Positions 48,696 through 64,000 of a stretch of 64,000 nt of DNA are shown here, piece after piece. Under the pieces are notes generated by a model. That model saw nothing but the letters and a program-made list of their open reading frames with translations, ran no database searches and was not told the origin of the DNA. The translations under genes were made by a program, and so were the position numbers. The stretch's first letter is position 1. Each line of letters starts with the position of its first letter. The stretch is from Angustibacter luteus (GTDB taxonomy: Bacteria > Actinomycetota > Actinomycetes > Actinomycetales > Angustibacteraceae): positions 310,001-374,000 of the forward strand of contig NZ_BAABFP010000002.1 in the NCBI RefSeq assembly GCF_039541115.1. Direction: 5' to 3'.

Positions 48696-49100
48696 ATGCT
48701 TCCCCGCCTGTTCGCCCGCACCGTCGAGGTCAGCGCCCACTGCGACCTCCCCTGCGGCGTCTACGACCCCGCCCAGGCCAAGATCGAGGCCGAGTCGGTC
48801 AAGGCCATCATCGGCAAGATGAAGGACAACTCCGACCCGGAGTTCATCGCCCGCGCGGTGCTCATCAAGGAGCAGCGTTCCGAGCTGGTCAAGCACCACC
48901 TCTGGGTGCTGTGGACCGACTACTTCAAGCCCCCGCACTTCGAGAAGTACCCGCAGCTGCACACGCTGTTCAACGAGGCGACGAAGCTCGCGGGTGCCGC
49001 CGGCACCAAGGGCAGCTCGGACGCCGGCAAGGCCGACGAGCTGCTGGCCAAGATCGACGAGATCGCCGACATCTTCTGGGAGACCAAGAAGGCGGCGTGA
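48696..49100 (+). CDS. sodN: Nickel superoxide dismutase precursor
   Basis: 14-aa propeptide followed by the nickel hook HCDLPCGVYDP; LWTDYFK. Confidence 0.97.
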   Translation: MLPRLFARTVEVSAHCDLPCGVYDPAQAKIEAESVKAIIGKMKDNSDPEFIARAVLIKEQRSELVKHHLWVLWTDYFKPPHFEKYPQLHTLFNEATKLAGAAGTKGSSDAGKADELLAKIDEIADIFWETKKAA

Positions 49101-54225: not shown

Positions 54226-54587
54226 CCGGGTAGGCGGTCGAGAAACCGCCGGACGTCGACGACGACCCGGGTGACCTGCCCGGTCGCGAGCAGCCGGCCG
54301 TCGCGACCCGTCGCGGTCACGGCGAACCGGCGCAGCCGGCCGTCGGTGTACGTCGGCTCGGCCCGGACCAGCACAGACTCGCCCACCGGGCTGGCTGCCA
54401 GGTGCTCCAGCTCGACCCGGGTGCCGACGCTCGTCGAGCCGTCAGGCAGCGGCTCGGCGGCGTCGCCCGTGACGGCCTCGCACCAGGCGAGCAGCCGAGG
54501 GGTGGCCAGCACGTCGAGAGTGCCGGAGCCGAGCGCGCGGGCGGTGTCGTCGTCCGAGACCTGGAACTGCCGGTGCGCGTCGCTCAC
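54222..54587 (-). CDS. Hotdog-fold thioesterase (FlK-like)
   Basis: GSG.LDVLATP, E, SVGT and HLAASPVG; leaderless TAGCGT-N6-GTG. Confidence 0.85.
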   Translation of the reverse strand: MSDAHRQFQVSDDDTARALGSGTLDVLATPRLLAWCEAVTGDAAEPLPDGSTSVGTRVELEHLAASPVGESVLVRAEPTYTDGRLRRFAVTATGRDGRLLATGQVTRVVVDVRRFLDRLPG

Positions 54588-54614
54588 CCCGCGACGCTAC
54601 CCCGCGCGGAGCAG

Positions 54615-54655
54615 GCACGTTCGTCCCCGGGGGCGAACGTGCATGATCACCGCGG
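54615..54655. repeat. REP-like palindrome, truncated copy
   Basis: GCACGTTCGTCCCC/GGGGGCGAACGTGC; right arm identical over 26 nt to 53332-53357. Confidence 0.8.
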
Positions 54656-54678
54656 AGGGAGGGGGCGGCCGAACCGGG

Positions 54679-55770
54679 TCAGGCGACCAGGCCGAGGCGA
54701 CGCAGCTCGACGGTGAGGTCGTGCGGGTTGCTCGCGGCGCTCATGGCGTCCTCGAGCGTCACCACCCCGTCGCGGATGAGCGTGGTCAGGTGCTGGTCGA
54801 AGGTCTGCATCCCGTAGAAGCCGCCCTCGGTGATGAGCTCGGTGAGGGTGCTGGTCTTCTCCGGGTCCGCGATGGCGTCGGCGACACGACCGGTGTTGAT
54901 CGCGATCTCCATCGCGACGCAGCGGCCCTGGCCGTCGGCCCGCGGCACCAGCCGCTGGCAGATGATGCCGCGCAGCGAGCCGGCCAGCGCGAGCCGGACC
55001 TGCTTCTGCTCGTGCGGGGGGAAGAAGTCGATGATGCGCGCGATGGTCTCCTGCGCGTTCGTGGTGTGCAGCGTCGACATGACGAAGTGCCCGGTCTCGG
55101 ACGCCGACAGGGCGGCCTTCACGGTCTCGACGTCCCGCATCTCGCCGACCAGGATGACGTCCGGGTCCTGGCGCATCGCGGCGCGCAGGGCGACGGCGAA
55201 GTCCTCGGTGTCCAGCCGGACCTCGCGCTGGTTGATCATCGAGAGCTGGTCGCGGTGCAGGACCTCGATCGGGTCCTCGATGGTCACGATGTGGCACTCG
55301 CGGTGGGTGTTGATGTGGTCCACCATGCCGGCCAGCGTCGTCGTCTTGCCCGAACCCGTGGGGCCGGTGACGAGCACTAGGCCGCGCGGCTCGAGGGACA
55401 GCTGGGCGATCACCGCGGGCACGCTGAGCTCGTCCAGCGGCAGGGCGCCGACCGAGACCCGGCGGAACACCAGGCCGATCGAGCCGCGGGACTTGAACGC
55501 GTTGACCCGGAAGCGGCCGACCCCGGCCAGCGAGTAGGCGAAGTCCGCCTCGTTGGTCCGCTTGAACACCTCGCGCAGGTCGTCGCGCATGACCTCGTCG
55601 GCGATGGCCGCGGTCTGCTCGGGCGTCAGCGCCGGCCCCTGCAGCTTGCGCAGGCGCCCGTCGATGCGCAGGCGCGCCGGAGAACCGACCTTGATGTGCA
55701 GGTCGGAGCCCCGCAGCTCGGAGAGAGCGCGGAGGTACGGCGACACGGAGATCACGGCAGACTCGTCCAC
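54679..55770 (-). CDS. pilT: Type IV pilus retraction ATPase PilT/PilU
   Basis: SDLH, GRFRVN, GPTGSGKTT, TIEDPIE, QREV, RQDPDVILVGEMRD, TGH...TLHT and GMQTFDQ. Confidence 0.93.
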   Translation of the reverse strand: MDESAVISVSPYLRALSELRGSDLHIKVGSPARLRIDGRLRKLQGPALTPEQTAAIADEVMRDDLREVFKRTNEADFAYSLAGVGRFRVNAFKSRGSIGLVFRRVSVGALPLDELSVPAVIAQLSLEPRGLVLVTGPTGSGKTTTLAGMVDHINTHRECHIVTIEDPIEVLHRDQLSMINQREVRLDTEDFAVALRAAMRQDPDVILVGEMRDVETVKAALSASETGHFVMSTLHTTNAQETIARIIDFFPPHEQKQVRLALAGSLRGIICQRLVPRADGQGRCVAMEIAINTGRVADAIADPEKTSTLTELITEGGFYGMQTFDQHLTTLIRDGVVTLEDAMSAASNPHDLTVELRRLGLVA

Positions 55771-55779
55771 GACTGTCAG

Positions 55780-55806
55780 ATCGGCCCGACCGGCGGGTGA
55801 CTTGAG
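55780..55806 (-). promoter_or_regulatory. Sigma28-like promoter of pilT
   Basis: Minus strand CTCA-N17-GCCGAT ending 9 nt before the GTG (near-leaderless). Confidence 0.65.
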
Positions 55807-55819
55807 GACCTGGGGGCCT

Positions 55820-57121
55820 CTACTCCACGCGGGTGACGACCCGGGTCAGCGCCGACACGACCCGAGGGTCGTACTCGTAGGCCAGTCCGAGGTGGATCCG
55901 CTCGAGCGCCTCGCGTCGCCGGCTCTCCGTGCCACCGTCCCCGACGAGGTCGTCGTAGGCGTTCGCGGCCTTGATGATCCGGCTGCCCAGCGGGACGGCG
56001 CGGTCATCGGTCTGGTGGTGACGGCGGTACGGCTCGCACTGGCGCTCGATCATGTCGGCGACGTCGTTCAGCACGCCGGTCCGGCGGACCACGTCGGCCC
56101 CCAGGTCGGCGATCCGGCGCTGCTCCATCGGGGCGGCCATCACGGTCGCCCCGCCGGGGATGGGCTCGCTGAGCGACAGCTGCCCGATGTCGTGCAGCAG
56201 CGCGGCGTACTCCAGGTCGCGCAGCGAGCGCTCGACCATGCCGAGGTCGCGGCCCATGGCCAGCGCCAGCGACGCCACCCGTCGCGAGTGCCCGGTCTCG
56301 GTGTAGCCGCCGAGCTCGGTGACCCGGGACAGCGACCGGATGGTCTGGTTGTAGGTCTCCTGGATCGTGGAGTACCGGCGGAACGCGAACTGGGTGAGCA
56401 GCAGCGGCGCCAGGAACACCGGCACGGCCAGCAGACCCATCGGCTCGGCGGCGAGGGCGATCAGCACCCCACCGCAGCCGATCGCGCTGCCCAGGGCGGA
56501 GTTGAACCGCAGCTCGTCGACCAGGACGGACTTGAGCCGGGCGTTCTCGTCGCCGGCGCGCATGGTGGCGGCCAGGATCGCGTCGAACGCCAACGAGACG
56601 GCCACCGCGAGCAGCATCAGCACCGCCAGGAACGACCGGTTGCCGACCCAGGCGCGACCGGCCTCGGCGACCGAGCCGTGCTCGGTGAACGGGATGACCC
56701 GCCAGATCACGGTGAGCAGCGTGATCGCCAGGAACCGGTGCACCAGCCCGGCCAGCTCCGGCGGCCGACCGGCGAGCAGGTGCGGCAGGATGCCCACGAC
56801 GGTGGCGAGGGCGACGACGGCGATCACGGTCGCCGGGTCCACGGACCCGCCGTGCGAGGGACCGACGTTGGTGGTCAGCACGAACGCCACGGCCGCGGCG
56901 GTGCCGATCGGCGCCGCCTCGCGGTCGCCCGGCAGCCACACCCGCAGCGCCTCCCCCAGCGCGATCGCTGCGGCGAAGACCACCACGACATCGACGTTGT
57001 GCGCGCCGCGCTGGGTCAGGCCGGCCGCGGACGCCCCGACCGCCGCGGCCGCGACCATGGCGGCCAGGCAGCTGAAGGCCCAGGTGAGGGACAGCCGCGG
57101 TCCGTTGGGTCCGAGGGTCAT
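55820..57121 (-). CDS. Membrane-bound degenerate HD-GYP protein
   Basis: Multi-TM N-terminus; GHSRRV and LLHDIG kept, but HHE..DG.GYP is replaced by QCEPY and the later ADAFD by ANAYD; ATG overlaps the upstream TGA. Confidence 0.82.
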   Translation of the reverse strand: MTLGPNGPRLSLTWAFSCLAAMVAAAAVGASAAGLTQRGAHNVDVVVVFAAAIALGEALRVWLPGDREAAPIGTAAAVAFVLTTNVGPSHGGSVDPATVIAVVALATVVGILPHLLAGRPPELAGLVHRFLAITLLTVIWRVIPFTEHGSVAEAGRAWVGNRSFLAVLMLLAVAVSLAFDAILAATMRAGDENARLKSVLVDELRFNSALGSAIGCGGVLIALAAEPMGLLAVPVFLAPLLLTQFAFRRYSTIQETYNQTIRSLSRVTELGGYTETGHSRRVASLALAMGRDLGMVERSLRDLEYAALLHDIGQLSLSEPIPGGATVMAAPMEQRRIADLGADVVRRTGVLNDVADMIERQCEPYRRHHQTDDRAVPLGSRIIKAANAYDDLVGDGGTESRRREALERIHLGLAYEYDPRVVSALTRVVTRVE

Positions 57122-58554
57122 CCGCGCTCCCCCTGGGCCGGCTGGCCGTCCAGGTCCAGCGGGAGCCGACCCTCGACGGCGAAGCCCGGGTCGTCGTGGT
57201 CGCGCGAGTCCGGCGGCTCGGGACCGAACGCCCCGGGGACGTCGAGCCCGGCCAGCCGGGGGTCGGGTGCGTCGGCCTGCGGGTCGGCCGGCACCCACTG
57301 GGTCCGCTGCAGCCCGTCGGTGAGCGCCGCGACGAAGACCGCATCGAACTGTGTGCCGGTGCACTGCCGCAGCTCCTCGACCGCGTCCTCGACGCTGCGA
57401 GCCTGCCGGTAGGAACGGGTCGAGGTCATGGAGTCGAAGGCGTCCGCGACGGCGATGATGCGCGCGAACTCGGGAATCGCCGAACCGGCCAGACCCATCG
57501 GGTAGCCCCGGCCGTCAAGCCGCTCGTGGTGGTGCAGGATCCCCTCGAACGCCTCACCGAGGAACTCGATCTCGCGCACCATCTCGAGACCGCGCACCGG
57601 GTGCCGCGCGATCGTGGCGAACTCCTCGTCGGTGAGGGCACCGGTCTTCTGCAGCACCCGGGTGGGCACCCCCAGCTTGCCGACGTCGTGCAGCATGCCG
57701 GCGAAGTGCAGGGTCGACGTCCGCTGCTGGGACAGGCCCGAGGCCCGGGCGATGATCACGGACGCGCGAGCCACCCGCTCGCTGTGGCCCCGGGTGTAGT
57801 GGTCCTTGGCCTCCACGGCCTGCACGAGGGCGGCCACCGTGCGTTCGTGCGCAGCGTTCTGCTCGGCGTACTGGGCGAAGGCCCAGCGGGCGACGAAGAG
57901 CGGGGCGAGCACCAGGACGGCGGACAGCGGGCCGACGCCGGCGGCCTTCCAGAGCACCACCAGCAGGAGGCCGAACAGGCCGTAGCCGACGTACGCGACG
58001 CCGCCGCTGCGGAGCATGCCGGTCAGCACCTCGCGGAACGGGACGCGGTTGTTCACGCTGACGATGCCCGCGACCAGCACCGCGTTCGCCAGGCACATGA
58101 CGACGTCGGCCAGCACCAGCGGGAGGGCGAGCCGGGTGAGCAGGTCACCGGTCGCGCCCAGCCACGTCTCGGGATCGGTCGTGCCGCCGAGCACCGTGAA
58201 CGCGAGCCCGGCGGACCCGGCCAGCAGCACGTACAGGGCCGTGTTCATCGCCCAGCGGACCGGCGAGACGCGGCGGATCTCCGGCAGCCAGGACGCGATC
58301 CCGACGAGCATGGCGCCCGTGGTGCCGACCAGCACGACCGAGGCCAGCAGCACGATGGAGTTGGTGCCGAGGTCGGTCCGCTCGTAGACGCCACGGACCC
58401 GCGTGACGCTGCTGACCAGGCACAACAGCGCCAGGACGGCGATATCGGCCCAGTGCTCGGGCGGCGAGACCCGCCAGCTGACGGCCAGCGACGCGCAGGC
58501 GAGCAGGACCGACCCACCGACGTACAGTCGGACGCGGGCCTGACTGCGGTCCAC
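57118..58554 (-). CDS. Membrane-bound HD-GYP c-di-GMP phosphodiesterase
   Basis: Multi-TM sensor region; HSERV, LHDVGK, HP..G, HHHERLDGRGYP and ADAFDSMT..RSY; GAGGGAG RBS. Confidence 0.92.
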   Translation of the reverse strand: MDRSQARVRLYVGGSVLLACASLAVSWRVSPPEHWADIAVLALLCLVSSVTRVRGVYERTDLGTNSIVLLASVVLVGTTGAMLVGIASWLPEIRRVSPVRWAMNTALYVLLAGSAGLAFTVLGGTTDPETWLGATGDLLTRLALPLVLADVVMCLANAVLVAGIVSVNNRVPFREVLTGMLRSGGVAYVGYGLFGLLLVVLWKAAGVGPLSAVLVLAPLFVARWAFAQYAEQNAAHERTVAALVQAVEAKDHYTRGHSERVARASVIIARASGLSQQRTSTLHFAGMLHDVGKLGVPTRVLQKTGALTDEEFATIARHPVRGLEMVREIEFLGEAFEGILHHHERLDGRGYPMGLAGSAIPEFARIIAVADAFDSMTSTRSYRQARSVEDAVEELRQCTGTQFDAVFVAALTDGLQRTQWVPADPQADAPDPRLAGLDVPGAFGPEPPDSRDHDDPGFAVEGRLPLDLDGQPAQGERG

Positions 58555-58629
58555 TTGGCTCCCTCGTGATGGGCCAGAGTGCGTGAGGGAGACCGGCGGC
58601 TGGGGCGAACGAGTCGTTTAGCTCGTCGG

Positions 58630-58701
58630 TCAGCCGTTCATCCAGGTCCAGCCGGGCTGGGAGGAAAGGAACTTCTCGACTGCGGACACGATCTTGCTCA
58701 C
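58630..58701 (-). CDS. 23-aa peptide MSKIVSAVEKFLSSQPGWTWMNG
   Basis: AAGGAG RBS, GTG start, almost all codons G/C-ending, first ORF of the HD-GYP unit; not in the track. Confidence 0.7.
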   Translation of the reverse strand: MSKIVSAVEKFLSSQPGWTWMNG

Positions 58702-58778
58702 GGGACACCACTCCTTGATCGGGTCGTCACGAGGCCGCTATTCCCCGCGCGCACTCCGCTCCGCTCTGGAAATGGACC

Positions 58779-58817
58779 TACCGGACAAACATACAGGGGT
58801 GACGTTTGTCCGGTAAA
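58779..58817 (-). promoter_or_regulatory. Operator palindrome overlapping a sigma70-type promoter
   Basis: TACCGGACAAAC-N13-GTTTGTCCGGTA (perfect, 58779-58815); minus strand TTTACC-N18-TATGTT overlaps it. Confidence 0.65.
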
Positions 58818-58980
58818 GCACCGCCGGTCTCCTTCACGCACTCTGGAGTTGTTCTGGTCTCGCTCGGCGGATGCTATCCGCCGATCCGCTCCGGGAGCCG
58901 CATGTCGCGCGGTCCGTGGACGCGTCGTTGCTCCGTTCGAGTGAACCAGAGGCTCACCCTGAGCGACATTCGACCCAAGA

Positions 58981-59006
58981 GTCACGCTGCGCAGCCGGGT
59001 GCCGAC
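58981..59006 (+). promoter_or_regulatory. Sigma28-like promoter
   Basis: GTCA-N16-GCCGAC, 34 nt before ATG 59041. Confidence 0.5.
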
Positions 59007-59040
59007 TACGTTCTGTGGTGACCGACCCCGAGGGAGCGAG

Positions 59041-59694
59041 ATGACGTCGTTGCGGCTACGGCCCGAGTTGGAGGACGTCCTGCGCACGGTGCCGGGCATC
59101 CAGGCAGTCAGCGTGGTGACCACCCCGGACGGCGCGCCCATCGAGGTGCACGTGCTGGCCGACCAGGGCAAGCCCGCCAAGCAGGTGGTCCGCGACGTCC
59201 AGTCCATCGCCATGACCGCGTTCGACCTCGACCTCGACCGGAAGATCGTCAGCGTCGTCCAGGTGGGCGAGGCGCCCTCCGCCACCCCGCTGCAGCTCGT
59301 TCCCGAACCGCCGGAGCCGACGGTCCGGCCCGTCGTGCAGCGGGTGAGCGTGAGCACCGAGCCCGGCAGCTCGGCGGCGGCGGTGACGGTGCGGATCGGC
59401 GACGACGAGTTCAGCGGCGAGGTGACCGGCGCCCCCACCACCGCCGCGCGCTCGCGGATGGTCGCCGAGGCGACCGTCCAGGCGGTCGGTGAGCTGCTCG
59501 GCGCCGGCTGCGAGGTGGAGTCCGCCCAGCTGCTGCGGGCCGGTGCGCACGACGTCGCCGTCGTCGTCGTGGCGCTGCAGGTCCCCCGGGTCGGTGAGCA
59601 GCTGCTCACCGGCAGCGCCCTCGTGCGCACCTACCCGGACGACGCGGTCGTGCGGGCCGTGCTCGATGCGCTGAATCGGCACCTGGCGGGCTGA
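59041..59694 (+). CDS. Hypothetical protein (217 aa), C-terminus resembling the LeuA allosteric domain
   Basis: GAGGGAG RBS, high GC3; EVHVLA...PAKQVVRDVQS...DRKIVSVVQ N-domain and a C-terminal GSAL...DAVVRAVLDALNR. Confidence 0.78.
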   Translation: MTSLRLRPELEDVLRTVPGIQAVSVVTTPDGAPIEVHVLADQGKPAKQVVRDVQSIAMTAFDLDLDRKIVSVVQVGEAPSATPLQLVPEPPEPTVRPVVQRVSVSTEPGSSAAAVTVRIGDDEFSGEVTGAPTTAARSRMVAEATVQAVGELLGAGCEVESAQLLRAGAHDVAVVVVALQVPRVGEQLLTGSALVRTYPDDAVVRAVLDALNRHLAG

Positions 59695-59773
59695 TCGAAG
59701 CCCGGCTCACCCGAGTCCCGCGGTGTGGGACCATGGACCCGAGCACGCCGCGAGCACGACGAAAGGAGCAGCG

Positions 59774-59848
59774 ATGAGCAAGCGCGCCCGCAAGCGCCGC
59801 AGCCGCAAGGGCAACTCCGCCAACCACGGCAAGAAGCCCAACGCGTAG
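59774..59848 (+). CDS. 50S ribosomal protein bL37 (actinobacterial)
   Basis: AAGGAG RBS; MSKRARKRRSRKGNSANHGKKPNA matches the bL37 ANHGK(R/K)PNA signature; not in the track. Confidence 0.9.
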   Translation: MSKRARKRRSRKGNSANHGKKPNA

Positions 59849-59925: not shown

Positions 59926-60192
59926 TCAGGCGTCGTACTGGATCCGCACCTGGGTGATCCGGGTGAGCACGCGGGTGCGCAGCTCGTCGGGCGCCGCCTC
60001 GCACGCGCAGCTGCGCCGGATCAGCGCCTTGAGCGCCTGGTCGAGGTCGTACTCCTGCAGGCAGGGCCCGCACTCCTCGAGGTGCTGCTTGATCTTCGCG
60101 CAGTCCAGCTCGGCCATCTCGTCGTCGAGGTACTCGAAGACGCGGTCGAGGACCTCACGGCAGTCCGTCTCGTGGTGGTTCCCGCAGCTCAC
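59926..60192 (-). CDS. rsrA: Zinc-binding anti-sigma factor RsrA/RshA
   Basis: MSCG...[10 protein letters not shown] (HxxxCxxC) and APDELR; coupled to sigR. Confidence 0.93.
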
Positions 60193-60848
60193 GACTCGCC
60201 TCCGCCAGGCCTTCCGGCGGCCACCAGGCCGCGCTCACGTGCGTAGTCCGTCAGCAGCTCGCGCAGCTGTCGCCGCCCACGGTGCAGGCGAGACATCACG
60301 GTGCCGATCGGCGTACCCATGATCTCCGCGATCTCCTTGTAGGCAAAGCCCTCCACGTCGGCGTAGTACACCGCCATGCGGAAGTCCTCGGGGATCTGCT
60401 GCAGCGCGTCCTTGACGTCGCTGTCCGGCAGGTGGTCCAACGCCTCGGCCTCGGCCGAGCGCAGGCCACGCGAGGTGTGCGACTCGGCGCGCGCCAGCTG
60501 GTAGTCCTCGATGTTCTCGGCATCGGACTGCTGGGGCTCACGCTGCTTCTTGCGGTACGTGTTGATGTAGGTGTTCGTCAGGATCCGGTACAGCCACGCC
60601 TTGAGGTTCGTGCCCGGGCGGTACTGGTGGAACGCGGCGAACGCCTTGGCGAACGTCTCCTGCACGAGGTCCTCGGCGTCGGCCGGGTTGCGGGTCATCC
60701 GCAGGGCCGCCGAGTAGAGCTGGTCCAGGTACTGCATCGCGTCCCGCTCGAAGCGCTCGGTGCGGTCCTGGGCGCTCTCGGTCTCGGGCGCACGGGTGGT
60801 GTCGTCGGCGTCCTCGGCCCCGGCCGGGGTCTGGCTGGTCTCTGTCAT
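60189..60848 (-). CDS. sigR: ECF sigma factor SigR/SigH (possible extended isoform from TTG 61004)
   Basis: [33 protein letters not shown] and [15 protein letters not shown]. Confidence 0.95.
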
Positions 60849-61064
60849 CGCTGACCAGGGTATCGCCGTCTGGACCTCGGACCTGACCGTCGTCCGCTTG
60901 CGTGACGCGGTTGAGGCTGGGCCCGCGGCCGGGGTCGACGCCCCGGAAGTCCAACGGCCGAGCGCCGGTCCGTCCAGCGCGCGGTCAGCTGCAGCAGTGA
61001 GCAACGCGAATCCTCCCGATCGAGTGGGTGACGACCTGCCGGTCGTCGGCCCGTCGGTGGTGAG

Positions 61065-61090: not shown

Positions 61091-61734
61091 GTCAGCTGCG
61101 CGAGCAGCTCACGGACGGCGGCCACGACCGCCGGCAGGTCGCCGGACAGTCCGTGGTCGCCGGCCACGGCCACGACCCGACCGGACGACGGCAGCACGGG
61201 CTCGACGTCCTGCGGGCCGCCGAACGGGTCCCGTCGGCCCTGCACGACGAGCAGCGGTAGGCCCCCGACCAGCGCGAGCTCGTCCGCCCGGCTGCGTTCA
61301 GGCTTGCCGGGCGGGTGCAGCGGGAAGGCCAGGGCCAGCACGGCGTCCGCCGCCAGCGCGGTGGCCGTCCGGCAGGCCACCCGAGCCCCCGCGCTCCGAC
61401 CCCCCACCACGAGCGGACCAGGCAGCGCTCCTCGACCGGAGCGCAGCTCGCGCACCGCGGGCAGCCAGGCCTCATCCAACCTCGGCGGTGGGGCCGCGAC
61501 CCGCTTACCGGCCACCAGCCACGGCTGCTCCACCAGGGCGACGGCCCAGCCGTCGTCCACGGCGGCCCGGGCGGCCGCGGTCAGGTCCTTGGCGCCGAAC
61601 CCGCCGCCGGCGCCGTGGCCGAGCACGAGGGTGCCGACCGCGCGCACCGGCCGCCGGACGTGCACCCGGGCCGGACCCACCGGCGTCTCGACGTCGCGCA
61701 CCTGCGGGGCGGGCGGGCGAGCCGCGGCCGCCAT
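61084..61734 (-). CDS. Alpha/beta hydrolase
   Basis: [13 protein letters not shown] nucleophile elbow, [16 protein letters not shown] and GDH. Confidence 0.88.
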
Positions 61735-62525
61735 CAGCCCAGCACCTCCCCGGTCATCGGGTCGACGACGCCCACGAGCTCCTCGCGCCGCGCCGGCTCG
61801 AGCAGCGTCGGGCCCTCGTTGCGAACGTCACCGACCCGGCGAGACACCGGGTAGGCCTCGAATCGGCCGGGTGGCGGCGGGTCGAGCAGCGGGCGGACGT
61901 CGTCCGGATCGGTGCGAGCGGGGTCGAGCCAGGCGTCCCAGCGCTCGCGCGGCACCACGAACGGCATCCGGTCGTGCAGCCGGTCCAGCCCCGGCTCGGC
62001 CGGCCCGGTGACGATGGTGAACGTGGTCAGCCAGGCGTCCGGGTCGTCGTCCGGCACGGCGTCGTTGCGCCAGAACTCGTACAGGCCGCCGAAGACCAGC
62101 CGGTCACCGCCGGCGAGGTGGGTGAAGAACGGCTGCTTGCGCGGTTTGCCCTTCACGTCCAGCGCGGTCGGGCTGGTCTGCCACTCGTACCAGCCGTCCG
62201 CGGGCACCAGGCAGCGCCGGGCTGCCGCCGCCCGCTTGAAGCCCGGCTTGTCGAACAGCGACTCGACCCGCGCGTTGATCATCCGGCTGCCGATCTTCGG
62301 GTCCTTGGCCCAGGACGGCACCAGGCCCCAGGTCAGCAGCCGCAGCTGGCGCACCGGTGGCGCGGAGCGGTCCGACCGCGGCGGACGCTCGAGCACGACC
62401 GGCACCTGGTGCGTCGGCGCCACGTTGTAGTCGGGCAGCACCGCTCCACCCGTCTCGTCGGACTCGATCTCGAGCTCCTCGACGAGGTCGTCCGGGTTGG
62501 CGCTCGCCGCGTACCTGCCGCACAT
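61734..62525 (-). CDS. SOS response-associated peptidase (SRAP/YedK/HMCES family)
   Basis: N-terminal MCGRY, YNVAPT, WGLVPSW, INARVE, GWYEW and HDRMP; track ORF over-extended. Confidence 0.93.
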   Translation of the reverse strand: MCGRYAASANPDDLVEELEIESDETGGAVLPDYNVAPTHQVPVVLERPPRSDRSAPPVRQLRLLTWGLVPSWAKDPKIGSRMINARVESLFDKPGFKRAAAARRCLVPADGWYEWQTSPTALDVKGKPRKQPFFTHLAGGDRLVFGGLYEFWRNDAVPDDDPDAWLTTFTIVTGPAEPGLDRLHDRMPFVVPRERWDAWLDPARTDPDDVRPLLDPPPPGRFEAYPVSRRVGDVRNEGPTLLEPARREELVGVVDPMTGEVLG

Positions 62526-62619
62526 GGGGCCAGCCTGCCACCACCCGCCGACACCCCCGGGTCGCGCCGACCGGCCCGGCTGGGCAGGATGGGACCCGTC
62601 CGCGACCCGGGGAGGCCCC

Positions 62620-63189
62620 ATGTCCGTCGTTCGCCGCATCGCCCGCCCACTGCTGGCCCTGACGTTCGTCGACGGCGGCTGGGACAGCTTCCGGCACCCG
62701 GCGGAGAAGGCCAAGAAGGCCGCCCCCGTGCTCGAGAAGGTCGCGCCGGTGCTCGGCCTGCCGAACGACCCGGAGATGCTGGTCCGGGCGAACGGGCTGG
62801 CCATGATGGGCGCCGGCGTCCTGTTCGCCACCAACCGCGCCCCGCGCACGAGCGCGCTCGTGCTGGCGGCGACGCTGGTGCCGACGACCGTGGCCGGGCA
62901 CCCGTTCTGGGAGGCCGACGACCCGGCCACCAAGCGGCAGCAGCGGCTGCACTTCTTCAAGAACCTCGGCATGCTCGGCGGTCTGCTCCTGGCGATCGTG
63001 GACACCGAGGGCAAGCCCGGCCTGAGCTGGCGCGCGCAGCGGGCCGCCAAGGATGCCAAGCGCGCCGCGGGAGCCGCGAAGAAGGACGCCCGACACGCCG
63101 CGCACGACGCCCGCCGGGAGGCCAAGCTCGCCAAGGCGCGGGCCAAGGCGCAGGTCGCCGATGTGCTGCCGGACCTGCCCGGCAGCTGA
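62620..63189 (+). CDS. DoxX family membrane protein
   Basis: GGAGG RBS; ARPLLA, PTT.AGHPFW and FFKNLGMLGGLL. Confidence 0.85.
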   Translation: MSVVRRIARPLLALTFVDGGWDSFRHPAEKAKKAAPVLEKVAPVLGLPNDPEMLVRANGLAMMGAGVLFATNRAPRTSALVLAATLVPTTVAGHPFWEADDPATKRQQRLHFFKNLGMLGGLLLAIVDTEGKPGLSWRAQRAAKDAKRAAGAAKKDARHAAHDARREAKLAKARAKAQVADVLPDLPGS

Positions 63190-63278
63190 CCGCGGCACCT
63201 GACCCCGGCACTGACCCAGGCCCGACCTCGGCGGGACCGGGTTAGACGCGGTCCGCTCGACCCGCGAGACTGTCGGGC

Positions 63279-64000
63279 ATGAGCGCCGACGCCGTGACCA
63301 CGCCCGTGCGCGACTGGACGGCCCCCGCCGCCACGACCCCGGTGGACAGCGTCGTGGTGGTGCCCGGCAGCAAGTCCCTGACCAACCGGCTGCTCGTGCT
63401 CGCCGCCGTCGCGGAGGGCCCCAGCCGGCTGCGCCGTCCCCTGCGCTCGCGCGACACCCAGCTGATGGCCGACAGCCTGCGCGCGCTCGGTGCCGACGTC
63501 CAGGACGTGCCCGGGACGGACGGTCTCGACTGGCTGATCACGCCCGGGCCGCTGCGCGGCGGCATCCAGGTGGACGCCGGGCTGGCCGGCACCGTGATGC
63601 GCTTCCTGCCTGCGGTCGCGGCGCTCGCCGACGGACCGGTGACGATCGATGGCGACCCCCGGGCCCGCGAACGCCCCATGGCTCCGGTGCTGGATGCGCT
63701 GCGCGCGCTCGGGGTCGAGGTGGACGACGGTGGGCGCGGCGCGCTGCCCTTCACCGTGCGCGGCGCCGGGTCGGTGCCCGGCGGCTCGGTGACCCTGGAC
63801 GCCTCCGCGTCCAGCCAGTTCGTGTCCGGCCTGCTGCTGGCCGCGGCCCGCTTCGAGCGCGGCGTCGTCGTCCACCACGACGGCAAGCCGGTGCCCAGCC
63901 AGCCGCACATCTCGATGACCGTCGAGGTGCTGCGCGACCGGGGCGTCGTCGTGGACGACAGCGAGCCGAACACCTGGCGGGTCGAGCCCGGCACGGTGAG
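63279..64000 (+). CDS. aroA: EPSP synthase (runs off the right edge)
   Basis: Hand-translated: [36 protein letters not shown] and PSQPH. Confidence 0.93.

Follow-up and report, generated by a model that had tools for sequence, protein, structure and literature searches.

What regulates the membrane-bound HD-GYP proteins of actinobacteria, and what is an open reading frame (ORF) of only 23 codons doing inside a long inverted repeat directly upstream of their genes? Both questions are raised by positions 54679 to 59694 of a 64,000-nucleotide (nt) stretch of the Angustibacter luteus genome (the window, meaning the whole stretch analysed), which is 72% G+C and actinobacterial, with homologue names pointing to Angustibacter or a near relative. 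An earlier note on this DNA had described the locus as a module in which a peptide, an intact and a degenerate HD-GYP protein, a type IV pilus ATPase (PilT) and a divergently encoded protein are tied together by cyclic di-GMP (c-di-GMP) and a sigma-28 factor; its observations are partly confirmed here and its interpretation is partly supported. The reading that we prefer, and hold tentatively, is that a previously undescribed structured RNA leader precedes the HD-GYP genes hdgA and hdgB, that the peptide encoded within this leader is a membrane-associated partner or regulator of HdgA/HdgB, and that the divergently encoded 217-amino-acid (aa) protein recognizes AGCGG repeats in the leader. The elements concerned, running down the minus strand from the divergent gene, are as follows.

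59041..59694, plus strand: divergent gene for a 217-aa protein of unknown family (homologue search, AlphaFold2 (AF2) model, co-occurrence)
58864..58884, minus strand: palindrome TCGGCGGAT-AGC-ATCCGCCGA with the TAnnnT hexamer TAGCAT (58871-58876), a candidate housekeeping -10 element picked out by eye
58847..58852, minus strand: invariant hexamer ACAACT, directly 5′ of helix P1 (38/38 alignment rows, the rows being anchored on ACAACT)
58821..58846, minus strand: 5′ arm of the long-range RNA helix P1 (inverted repeat, covariation, RNAalifold)
58779..58815, minus strand: variable-region hairpin, a perfect 12-nt palindrome here (repeat search, fold)
58755..58765, minus strand: tandem repeat AGCGGAGCGGA (invariant among carriers)
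58728..58749, minus strand: hairpin P2, 7 base pairs (bp), with AGCGG in its loop (covariation, RNAalifold)
58630..58701, minus strand: micro-ORF of 23 codons plus stop, with an amphipathic N-terminal half and a C-terminal tail of G-W-x-W type (recurrence, coding pattern)
58574..58599, minus strand: 3′ arm of the long-range RNA helix P1 (inverted repeat, covariation, RNAalifold)
57118..58554, minus strand: hdgA-like gene for a 478-aa membrane HD-GYP protein, by sequence a c-di-GMP phosphodiesterase (HD_5 1.3e-40)
55820..57121, minus strand: hdgB-like gene for a 433-aa membrane protein with a degenerate HD-GYP domain (HD_5 3e-11)

The inverted repeat (26 nt, 25/26 complementary, arms 221 nt apart) had been correctly seen to surround the peptide gene; it is no operator but a covarying long-range RNA helix, P1, which closes a leader of ∼270 nt containing the ORF, the hairpin P2 and three AGCGG words. 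An alignment of 38 leaders (A2) was built with rows anchored on the word ACAACT, after removal of two rows with a wrong anchor (L004, L055) and five with no anchor word or at a contig end (L008, L039, L046, L054, L082). In this alignment P1 has 26 pairs and P2 seven, and their cells are paired to 90.9%; with the partner shifted by 1-3 columns the figure falls to 36-45%, a comparison that favours the drawn structure because it was derived from A2's own sequences. Compensatory changes are present in 27 of the 33 pairs (21/26 in P1, where G-U is tolerated, and 6/7 in P2, where 94.7% of cells are paired), and 0 of 500 shuffles attain values as high as those observed. RNAalifold independently recovers P1 (19 pairs) and P2, and the leader of the window folds at -142.9 kcal/mol (z -4.82).

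Two near-perfectly matched arms at this distance might also have been a DNA feature, whether twin operator sites for a repressor that loops the DNA or the termini of a miniature mobile element, and the length, complementarity and spacing of the arms are what speaks for it. Nevertheless, the arms differ between families and yet stay complementary, the element occupies a fixed position relative to hdgA in 54 genomes as a single copy, and the 3′ arm of P1 and the inner end of its 5′ arm are present in RNA contigs (see below). Both the mobile-element and the DNA-operator versions are rejected for covariation, fixed position and single copy, and we leave a DNA role next to no probability.

Because the outer half of P1 covaries as RNA, its 5′ arm must itself be transcribed, so that the start of transcription has to lie upstream of this arm and the repeat cannot bracket the promoter, as had been supposed. 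TAGCAT is a candidate for the -10 element of that promoter; TACGAT or TACCAT occupies the matching position in relatives from the genus, as judged by eye, and a generic sigma-70/terminator scan of 54500-59800 returned 0 sites. ACAACT, which separates the candidate from P1, is kept even in relatives that have lost the AGCGG module (L059, L060, L062, L088), fits no TAnnnT -10 element and has no evident pairing partner. The feature that the earlier note called an operator is possibly the variable-region hairpin, whose length and sequence vary in other families.

Within the leader, the third AGCGG word lies in the loop of P2 and the other two make up the invariant tandem. RNAalifold pairs the GCGG of the first repeat with CCGC in codons 6-7 of the ORF (four pairs, no covariation), and the extended AGCGG motif is unique in the window's genome. 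A covariance model of the 108-nt core (R1), which includes the first 12 codons and is not a pure test of RNA structure, found one match per genome in 54 of 151 genomes (two in G154); every listed match that was compared by eye lies 100-250 nt upstream of an hdgA orthologue. No Rfam family matched the leader beyond noise (three matches at E 2.5-8.9, far below gathering scores), and a class-wide search with the IUPAC pattern AGCGGAGCGG-N8-30-AGCGG was uninformative, reversed-pattern controls being as frequent as matches.

The 23-codon ORF is a genuine, conserved, unannotated gene under coding selection, in agreement with the earlier note. AAGGAG lies 8 nt upstream of it; tblastn and a small hidden Markov model (HMM) place the peptide ahead of the hdgA orthologue in 38 loci of L001-L058, and the HMM matches 28 of 39 18-kb loci, one per genome, from diverse families. 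The co-occurrence of peptide ORF, HD-GYP pair and 217-aa gene on which the note's proposal turned is seen in many other genomes. Among 37 peptide-ORF sequences, codon-position entropy is 0.45, 0.40 and 0.91 at the first, second and third positions, the third varying twice as much as the others, and synonymous changes account for 32% of pairwise codon differences in frame, compared with 9% and 7% in the other frames. Residues 2-13 form a predicted amphipathic helix (hydrophobic moment 0.59; as high in 29 of 5000 shuffles), and W-x-W falls within the last 8 residues of 35/38 peptides. None of 10 members of the family is present in a 15-billion protein collection. As to a secreted signal peptide, inspection by eye revealed no signal sequence, and no export or maturation genes among the neighbouring proteins scanned (those at about 44-64 kb in the window). 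Also by eye, divergent copies of the peptide were seen in L081 and L083, and no micro-ORF in the Streptomyces-like loci L072 and L073.

Other forms of the micro-ORF occur upstream of hdgA. Two loci of one family (f23: L067 and L091) encode longer peptides, of 53 and 38 residues, that begin with a similar helix and end in one or two W-x-W-G-G tails; these loci carry neither the ACAACT nor the AGCGG word. Three loci of another family (f26: L074, L093 and L075), from lineages without the 217-aa gene, the RNA core and pilT, have hydrophobic, transmembrane-like micro-ORFs of 35 and 28 residues that end in S-W-T or G-W-T-W-W.

Does the peptide act as a molecule in its own right, or does the ORF serve only in cis, with translation or the nascent Trp-rich chain gating an attenuator or processing switch for hdgAB and the released peptide being functionless? 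The ORF's position inside a conserved structured leader, the capacity of invariant AGCGG to pair with codons 6-7, the two Trp codons near the stop in most peptides, and RNA contigs that contain the leader without downstream message, as premature termination or processing would give, are all compatible with the second possibility. It fits less well with the pattern of conservation, in which the amphipathic N-terminal half is conserved best and not the residues next to the stop, with a variable number of residues (0 to 5) following W-x-W. Nor was a terminator-like site found between the ORF and hdgA in the generic scan, and the downstream genes are unconnected to tryptophan supply. The main argument for a functional peptide comes from the lineages that lack the RNA motifs, which keep a micro-ORF whose N-terminus has changed (becoming hydrophobic or longer) while its Trp tail has stayed alike: since the Trp motif persists as the N-terminus shifts, it is the peptide itself, and not translation alone, that appears to be functional. 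We consider a purely cis-acting ORF unlikely, and continue to favour a peptide that acts on the proteins encoded downstream. A bacterial parallel is MgrB with PhoQ, where, as here, a peptide of 20-50 residues is encoded beside a membrane sensor enzyme, its regulation of that enzyme being a proposal in the present case; in contrast to MgrB, the family described here consists mostly of amphipathic peptides, without a transmembrane character, that close with a Trp motif and whose coding sequence lies within the structured leader of the very operon they would target.

The divergent gene for the 217-aa protein, which the earlier note had listed as an unknown, is tied to this leader. The protein has no Pfam or NCBIfam match (E<=0.01), including none that would place it by sequence in the LeuA_dimer family, and its 2529 homologues are all named ‘hypothetical’; at least 577 relatives lie in named genome contigs, from Angustibacter, Acidothermaceae, Frankiales, Sporichthyaceae, Motilibacteraceae and Candidatus Nanopelagicales. 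When R1 and the protein (E<=1e-20) were scored in 151 genomes, 53 had both (including G070, which is unpublished), one had the RNA only (a 60%-complete genome), none had the protein only and 97 had neither, nine of these 97 holding a distant paralogue of the protein; such counts ignore kinship and overstate the number of evolutionary events. Comparison of the window and 39 further loci gave the same picture, the 217-aa gene and the word AGCGGAGCGG upstream of hdgA being both present in 24 and both absent in 14, with the word alone in two (one at a contig end) and the protein alone in 0. From the opposite direction, 71 of 80 loci anchored on the protein have R1 on the other strand upstream, and in seven of the nine exceptions the upstream flank is shorter than 800 nt. 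The association can be followed even within the window's own genus, where the window and G003 have both the gene and the AGCGG module and G001, G002 and G004 have neither, while keeping ACAACT, P1, the peptide ORF and pilT. Gains and losses of the RNA core coincide with those of the 217-aa gene. The AGCGG module is, we infer, what the protein recognizes; recognition as RNA would be simplest, given that the third repeat forms part of a covarying hairpin's loop.

The AF2 model of the protein (predicted local distance difference test score, pLDDT, 86.8) comprises an N-terminal alpha-beta-beta-alpha-beta domain, a disordered linker and a C-terminal 2x(beta-beta-beta-alpha) domain. As modelled, the C-terminal domain (residues 95-217) shares the fold of the LeuA/citramalate-synthase regulatory domain (Foldseek: 1sr9_B, E 1.6e-5, and 3f6h, TMt 0.59; VIA: Z 9.3 to 3f6g_B over 108 aligned residues, root-mean-square deviation 3.0); the matched LeuA and citramalate synthase regulatory domains bind leucine or isoleucine. 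The N-terminal domain gave generic matches alone (Z 7-8). In having three AGCGG copies in a leader and a small co-inherited neighbour protein with a fold of ligand-binding type, the system recalls TRAP and HutP; unlike these, the protein is acidic and combines a LeuA-regulatory-like with an alpha-beta-beta-alpha-beta fold, and both its binding and its ligand are proposals here.

Two further observations concern this family. In many families, an ORF of ∼190 aa without a Pfam match precedes the 217-aa gene in the same direction, and outside the window a 358-aa ORF without a Pfam match (locus L103, G000:C2:560882-561955) contains a paralogue of the C-terminal domain (residues 92-214, 43% identity, E 5e-14) and has a WhiG-like motif 3 nt before its start.

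Traces of the leader were found in metatranscriptomes. Four runs, from four studies, each yielded one contig of 206-256 nt, 95% to >99% identical to the window, that spans the leader only (58596-58826, 58619-58824, 58570-58813 and 58581-58808). Across a 20-kb control stretch these were the longest near-identical pieces, the remaining matches being short fragments of conserved genes, bar one 221-nt piece with 14 differences. Within the ORF the contigs carry two synonymous variants and one Ser-to-Thr change in the variable part. Their depth is low (2.4-3.7), so that they cannot define the ends or strand of the RNA, and the lack of contig cover over hdgA, hdgB and the 217-aa gene is not evidence that these are silent. 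The contigs hint at a leader that builds up separately from the hdgAB mRNA, which would fit processing at P1; a helix of 26 bp is long enough for RNase III. The RNase III stems that flank rRNAs are similar in being helices of ∼26 bp with arms ∼220 nt apart around a functional RNA; here, by contrast, the helix encloses a micro-ORF in an mRNA leader, and cleavage is only proposed.

Discrete, near-identical, leader-confined contigs in four studies, the very stable fold, and the conserved single-stranded words ACAACT and AGCGG could also be features of a stable trans-acting small RNA of dual function, also coding, with targets other than hdgAB. Against this, the RNA always lies immediately upstream of hdgA, on the same strand and in one copy per genome, and the contigs cannot show RNA ends; a chiefly trans-acting role seems to us highly improbable. 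We return to a leader that acts on the operon it precedes.

That operon is itself known. Judged by sequence, the HD-GYP pair is the actinobacterial hdgA/hdgB operon, with one intact and one degenerate member. The protein encoded at 57118-58554 has both the HD motif and the HHExxDGxGYP block of HD-GYP phosphodiesterases, and HD, HHE, D and G.GYP are invariant in 29 orthologues (alignment A3); the second protein retains the HD motif, lacks the HHE..D..GYP block and is encoded directly behind hdgA, as expected of HdgB. The two genes overlap by ATGA at 57118-57121, the start of hdgB lying over the stop of hdgA, in line with the translational coupling that had been noted; they abut end to start in nearly all relatives, and the degenerate paralogue adjoins hdgA in 38/39 loci. 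An hdgA orthologue (E<=1e-50) is present in 184 of 401 genomes sampled from the class, one of which (G070) is flagged unpublished.

In Streptomyces venezuelae, according to the portions available of PMC6205966 (Al-Bassam et al. 2018), hdgA and hdgB encode membrane-bound proteins of 6TM-HD-GYP and 6TM-degenerate HD-GYP type and probably form an operon; HdgB self-interaction is described in the text available of PMC13232838 (2026), and Galperin and Chou (bioRxiv 10.1101/2021.11.05.467447, as excerpted) assign HdgA the MASE9-HD-GYP architecture and give a personal communication as the source for c-di-GMP hydrolysis by the S. venezuelae protein. The locus in the window shares with vnz24090/vnz24095 of that species a tandem of an intact membrane HD-GYP gene and a GYP-less paralogue, which abut or overlap and lie beside sigH/sigR-rshA/rsrA-like genes, and we infer orthology from the identical architecture, tandem order and sigH-rshA neighbourhood in large-genome relatives. 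The accessible parts of the published descriptions make no mention of an upstream peptide, a leader RNA or a 217-aa neighbour, in contrast to what is seen here. The earlier note's statement that the combination had not been described thus has to be divided: the HD-GYP pair has been published as HdgA/HdgB (PMC6205966), whereas searches of the literature turned up neither the peptide gene nor the covarying leader RNA nor its tight association with the 217-aa protein.

Taken as a mechanism, these parts could be connected as follows. The 217-aa protein would sense a small molecule through its LeuA-regulatory-like domain and bind the AGCGG module, thereby setting the translation or processing of the leader; P1, being of a length suited to RNase III, might let the peptide-coding RNA build up independently of the hdgAB message; and the peptide, by means of its amphipathic helix and Trp tail, would settle on the membrane side of the HdgA/HdgB sensor domains and adjust the hydrolysis of c-di-GMP. 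A fall in c-di-GMP would in turn release the sigma factor WhiG from its anti-sigma factor RsiG and raise the expression of pilT, pilus and flagellar genes. The complete version, a three-part riboregulatory unit in which a ligand-sensing 217-aa protein, an AGCGG leader in an RNase III-type helix and a Trp-tailed micro-protein form the input of HdgA/HdgB, with RsiG-WhiG as output to pilus and flagellar genes, strikes us as a rather improbable conjecture.

Several points weigh against the preferred reading, to which the limits stated above for the R1 model, the co-occurrence counts and the low-depth contigs also belong. The contacts between peptide and HdgA/HdgB, and between the 217-aa protein and RNA, are conjectural. 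The 217-aa protein is acidic (pI 4.81; family median 4.86) and has no recognized RNA-binding domain, its residues 154-217 bearing a weak resemblance to the uS5 N-domain and double-stranded RNA-binding domains (Z 6-7, TM about 0.2). Shine-Dalgarno accessibility, calculated from partition functions, is 0.32 against an average of 0.33 for the RNA, so that a simple translational switch is not evident. Residues 1-240 of neither HdgA nor HdgB gave a Pfam match to MASE9 at E<=10, the assignment being made because bioRxiv 10.1101/2021.11.05.467447 states it for HdgA. Deletion of hdgA or hdgB in S. venezuelae gave no developmental phenotype and both genes are poorly expressed, as stated in the text available of PMC6205966 and restated in that of PMC13232838, and the Streptomyces-like large-genome lineage (family f51) appears to be without the peptide, the RNA and the 217-aa gene. 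Finally, other GGDEF/EAL genes in the genome are linked to WhiG motifs, and HdgA therefore need not be the enzyme feeding RsiG.

The last step brings in pilT and its promoter, for which the following features are relevant.

55778..55805, minus strand: WhiG/sigma-28 type promoter-like site TCAAG-N15-GCCGATCT (motif conservation, fit to published queries)
54679..55770, minus strand: pilT paralogue for a 363-aa ATPase of the PilT/PilU family (TIGR01420 1.9e-136, T2SSE 5e-50)

The pilT product scores 454.8 bits against TIGR01420 (cut-off 319.1), which assigns it to the PilT/PilU ATPases, and shares 44% identity with the PilT-like ATPase encoded in the genome's type IV pilus cluster (C5:355.7-367 kb), which also encodes PilB, three N_methyl pilins and a prepilin peptidase. 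Upstream lies CTCAAG-N15-GCCGATCT at 55778-55806, with a -10 element that ends 7 nt before the GTG start, from which the pilT mRNA would be leaderless. This site, recognized by eye and with a looser pattern, has a spacer of 16 nt and fits the WhiG queries T(A/C)AA-N16-GCCGA and CTCA-N16-17-GCCGA, with central CGA, given in the text available of PMC12871210. In 19 of 27 loci the motif is present in the 200 nt upstream of the pilT orthologue, mostly ending 1-10 nt before the start, as against 7 of 2185 control windows. By these measures pilT carries a conserved promoter of predicted WhiG/sigma-28 type, as the earlier note had seen. The corresponding site proposed for the 217-aa gene has fared differently: a loose motif is present in 1/23 loci and absent in the nearest relative, and a scan with a fixed 15-nt-spacer sigma-28 consensus, with 8 matches in the window against 2.8 expected, gave none in 54679..59694.

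The genome encodes WhiG (6pfj_A, E 5e-105), a second sigma-28-like factor, and an RsiG (ORF C8:315155-315781; 6pfj_T, E 4.2e-27) with twin motifs at residues 61 and 169, the motif being two copies of E(X)3S(X)2R(X)3Q/H(X)3D; the search for whiG/rsiG and pil genes that had been proposed thus found all of them, including a full pilus cluster. In the same genome 13 ORFs have the promoter motif with a start codon within 10 nt. Among them, genes for a GGDEF-EAL protein (C2:212837-214951 of G000), an EAL-HDOD protein (C2:22512-23729), FliM (C2:31757-32731), the pilus cluster's PilT-like ATPase (C5:357495-358853) and a type IV pilin (C5:361410-361934) have it 5-10 nt before the start. These positions suggest a putative leaderless WhiG/FliA regulon over flagella, pili and c-di-GMP turnover in this organism. 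The portions available of PMC8325347 and PMC12871210 report WhiG control of type IV pilus genes and of diguanylate cyclase/phosphodiesterase (DGC/PDE) genes of c-di-GMP turnover. The present genome resembles the RsiG-(c-di-GMP)-WhiG switch described there in encoding WhiG and a twin-motif RsiG, and the published regulons in the pilT site and the motifs at pilin, pilus ATPase, FliM and GGDEF/EAL genes; it differs in that this pilT is a paralogue outside the pilus cluster, in a sigH-hdgAB synteny block, and in the main texts of these papers, as far as available, pilT or HD-GYP genes have 0 occurrences.

How much of this can be credited to a single circuit, as the earlier note had it, in which the peptide tunes HdgA/HdgB, c-di-GMP drops, sigma-28 is freed and pilT and the 217-aa ‘surface’ gene are switched on? 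The conserved pilT promoter, the presence of WhiG and RsiG, the motif-bearing genes just listed, the published WhiG control of pilus and DGC/PDE genes, and the proximity of pilT to hdgB (<=6 kb in 27/39 loci) are in keeping with it. What separates the parts is, firstly, the 217-aa gene, which has no conserved sigma-28 site, is in other families the second gene behind another ORF, and tracks the RNA module, not the promoter class to which pilT belongs. Secondly, biotin carboxylase and small biotinyl-carrier protein (BCCP) genes, or a TauE exporter gene, lie between hdgB and pilT elsewhere (L068, L070, L071, L076, L079, L090), which indicates that conserved synteny accounts for most of the adjacency seen in the window; 12/39 loci have hdgAB but no pilT, and the peptide is found without pilT in L077, L088, L092 and L095. 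Lastly, genome-wide counts of the loose motif are barely above the null (45 vs 35), and nothing singles out HdgA among several phosphodiesterases as the one acting on RsiG. The full circuit as one module is in our view distinctly doubtful.

The genes named in the earlier note are all real, and the wider neighbourhood places them in an old synteny block, with the order sigH-rshA-[217-aa gene]-leader-hdgA-hdgB-[...]-pilT. Its anchor is a SigH/RshA-like pair beyond the 217-aa gene, found in the same order in 37/39 relatives' loci.

59926-60192, minus strand: zf-HC2 anti-sigma factor, RshA-like (context protein scan)
60189-61004, minus strand: extracytoplasmic function (ECF) sigma factor, SigH-like (context protein scan)

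Past this pair are an SRAP (SOS-response-associated peptidase) gene, DoxX and aroA, and behind pilT are genes for a thioesterase, BrkB and an SSF symporter. The SRAP domain is confined to the last third of a 724-codon open frame (61734-63908, minus strand), which overlaps the plus-strand DoxX and aroA genes, so that the true SRAP gene is likely to be far shorter. Short fragments of a nickel superoxide dismutase gene (48696-49100, plus strand; Sod_Ni, 3.5e-45) add up to a high depth in two of the metatranscriptomes, with many organisms as their probable source.

Known before this analysis were hdgA/hdgB and WhiG-type control of pilus genes; set out here are the peptide gene, the covarying leader RNA, the 217-aa protein co-inherited with the AGCGG/hairpin core, and the conserved predicted WhiG promoter of pilT. 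HD-GYP proteins of the MASE9 type are widespread and their input signals are unknown, and the HdgA/HdgB pair of Streptomyces offers no phenotype from which to start; the peptide, the RNA and the 217-aa protein provide three testable handles on that input. With the leader, a phylum in which few cis-regulatory RNAs are known gains a large structured RNA that has a coding sequence within it. With a PilT paralogue in a conserved, putative WhiG (sigma-28) promoter class beside c-di-GMP enzymes, the link from c-di-GMP turnover to RsiG-WhiG becomes directly testable in non-sporulating actinobacteria.

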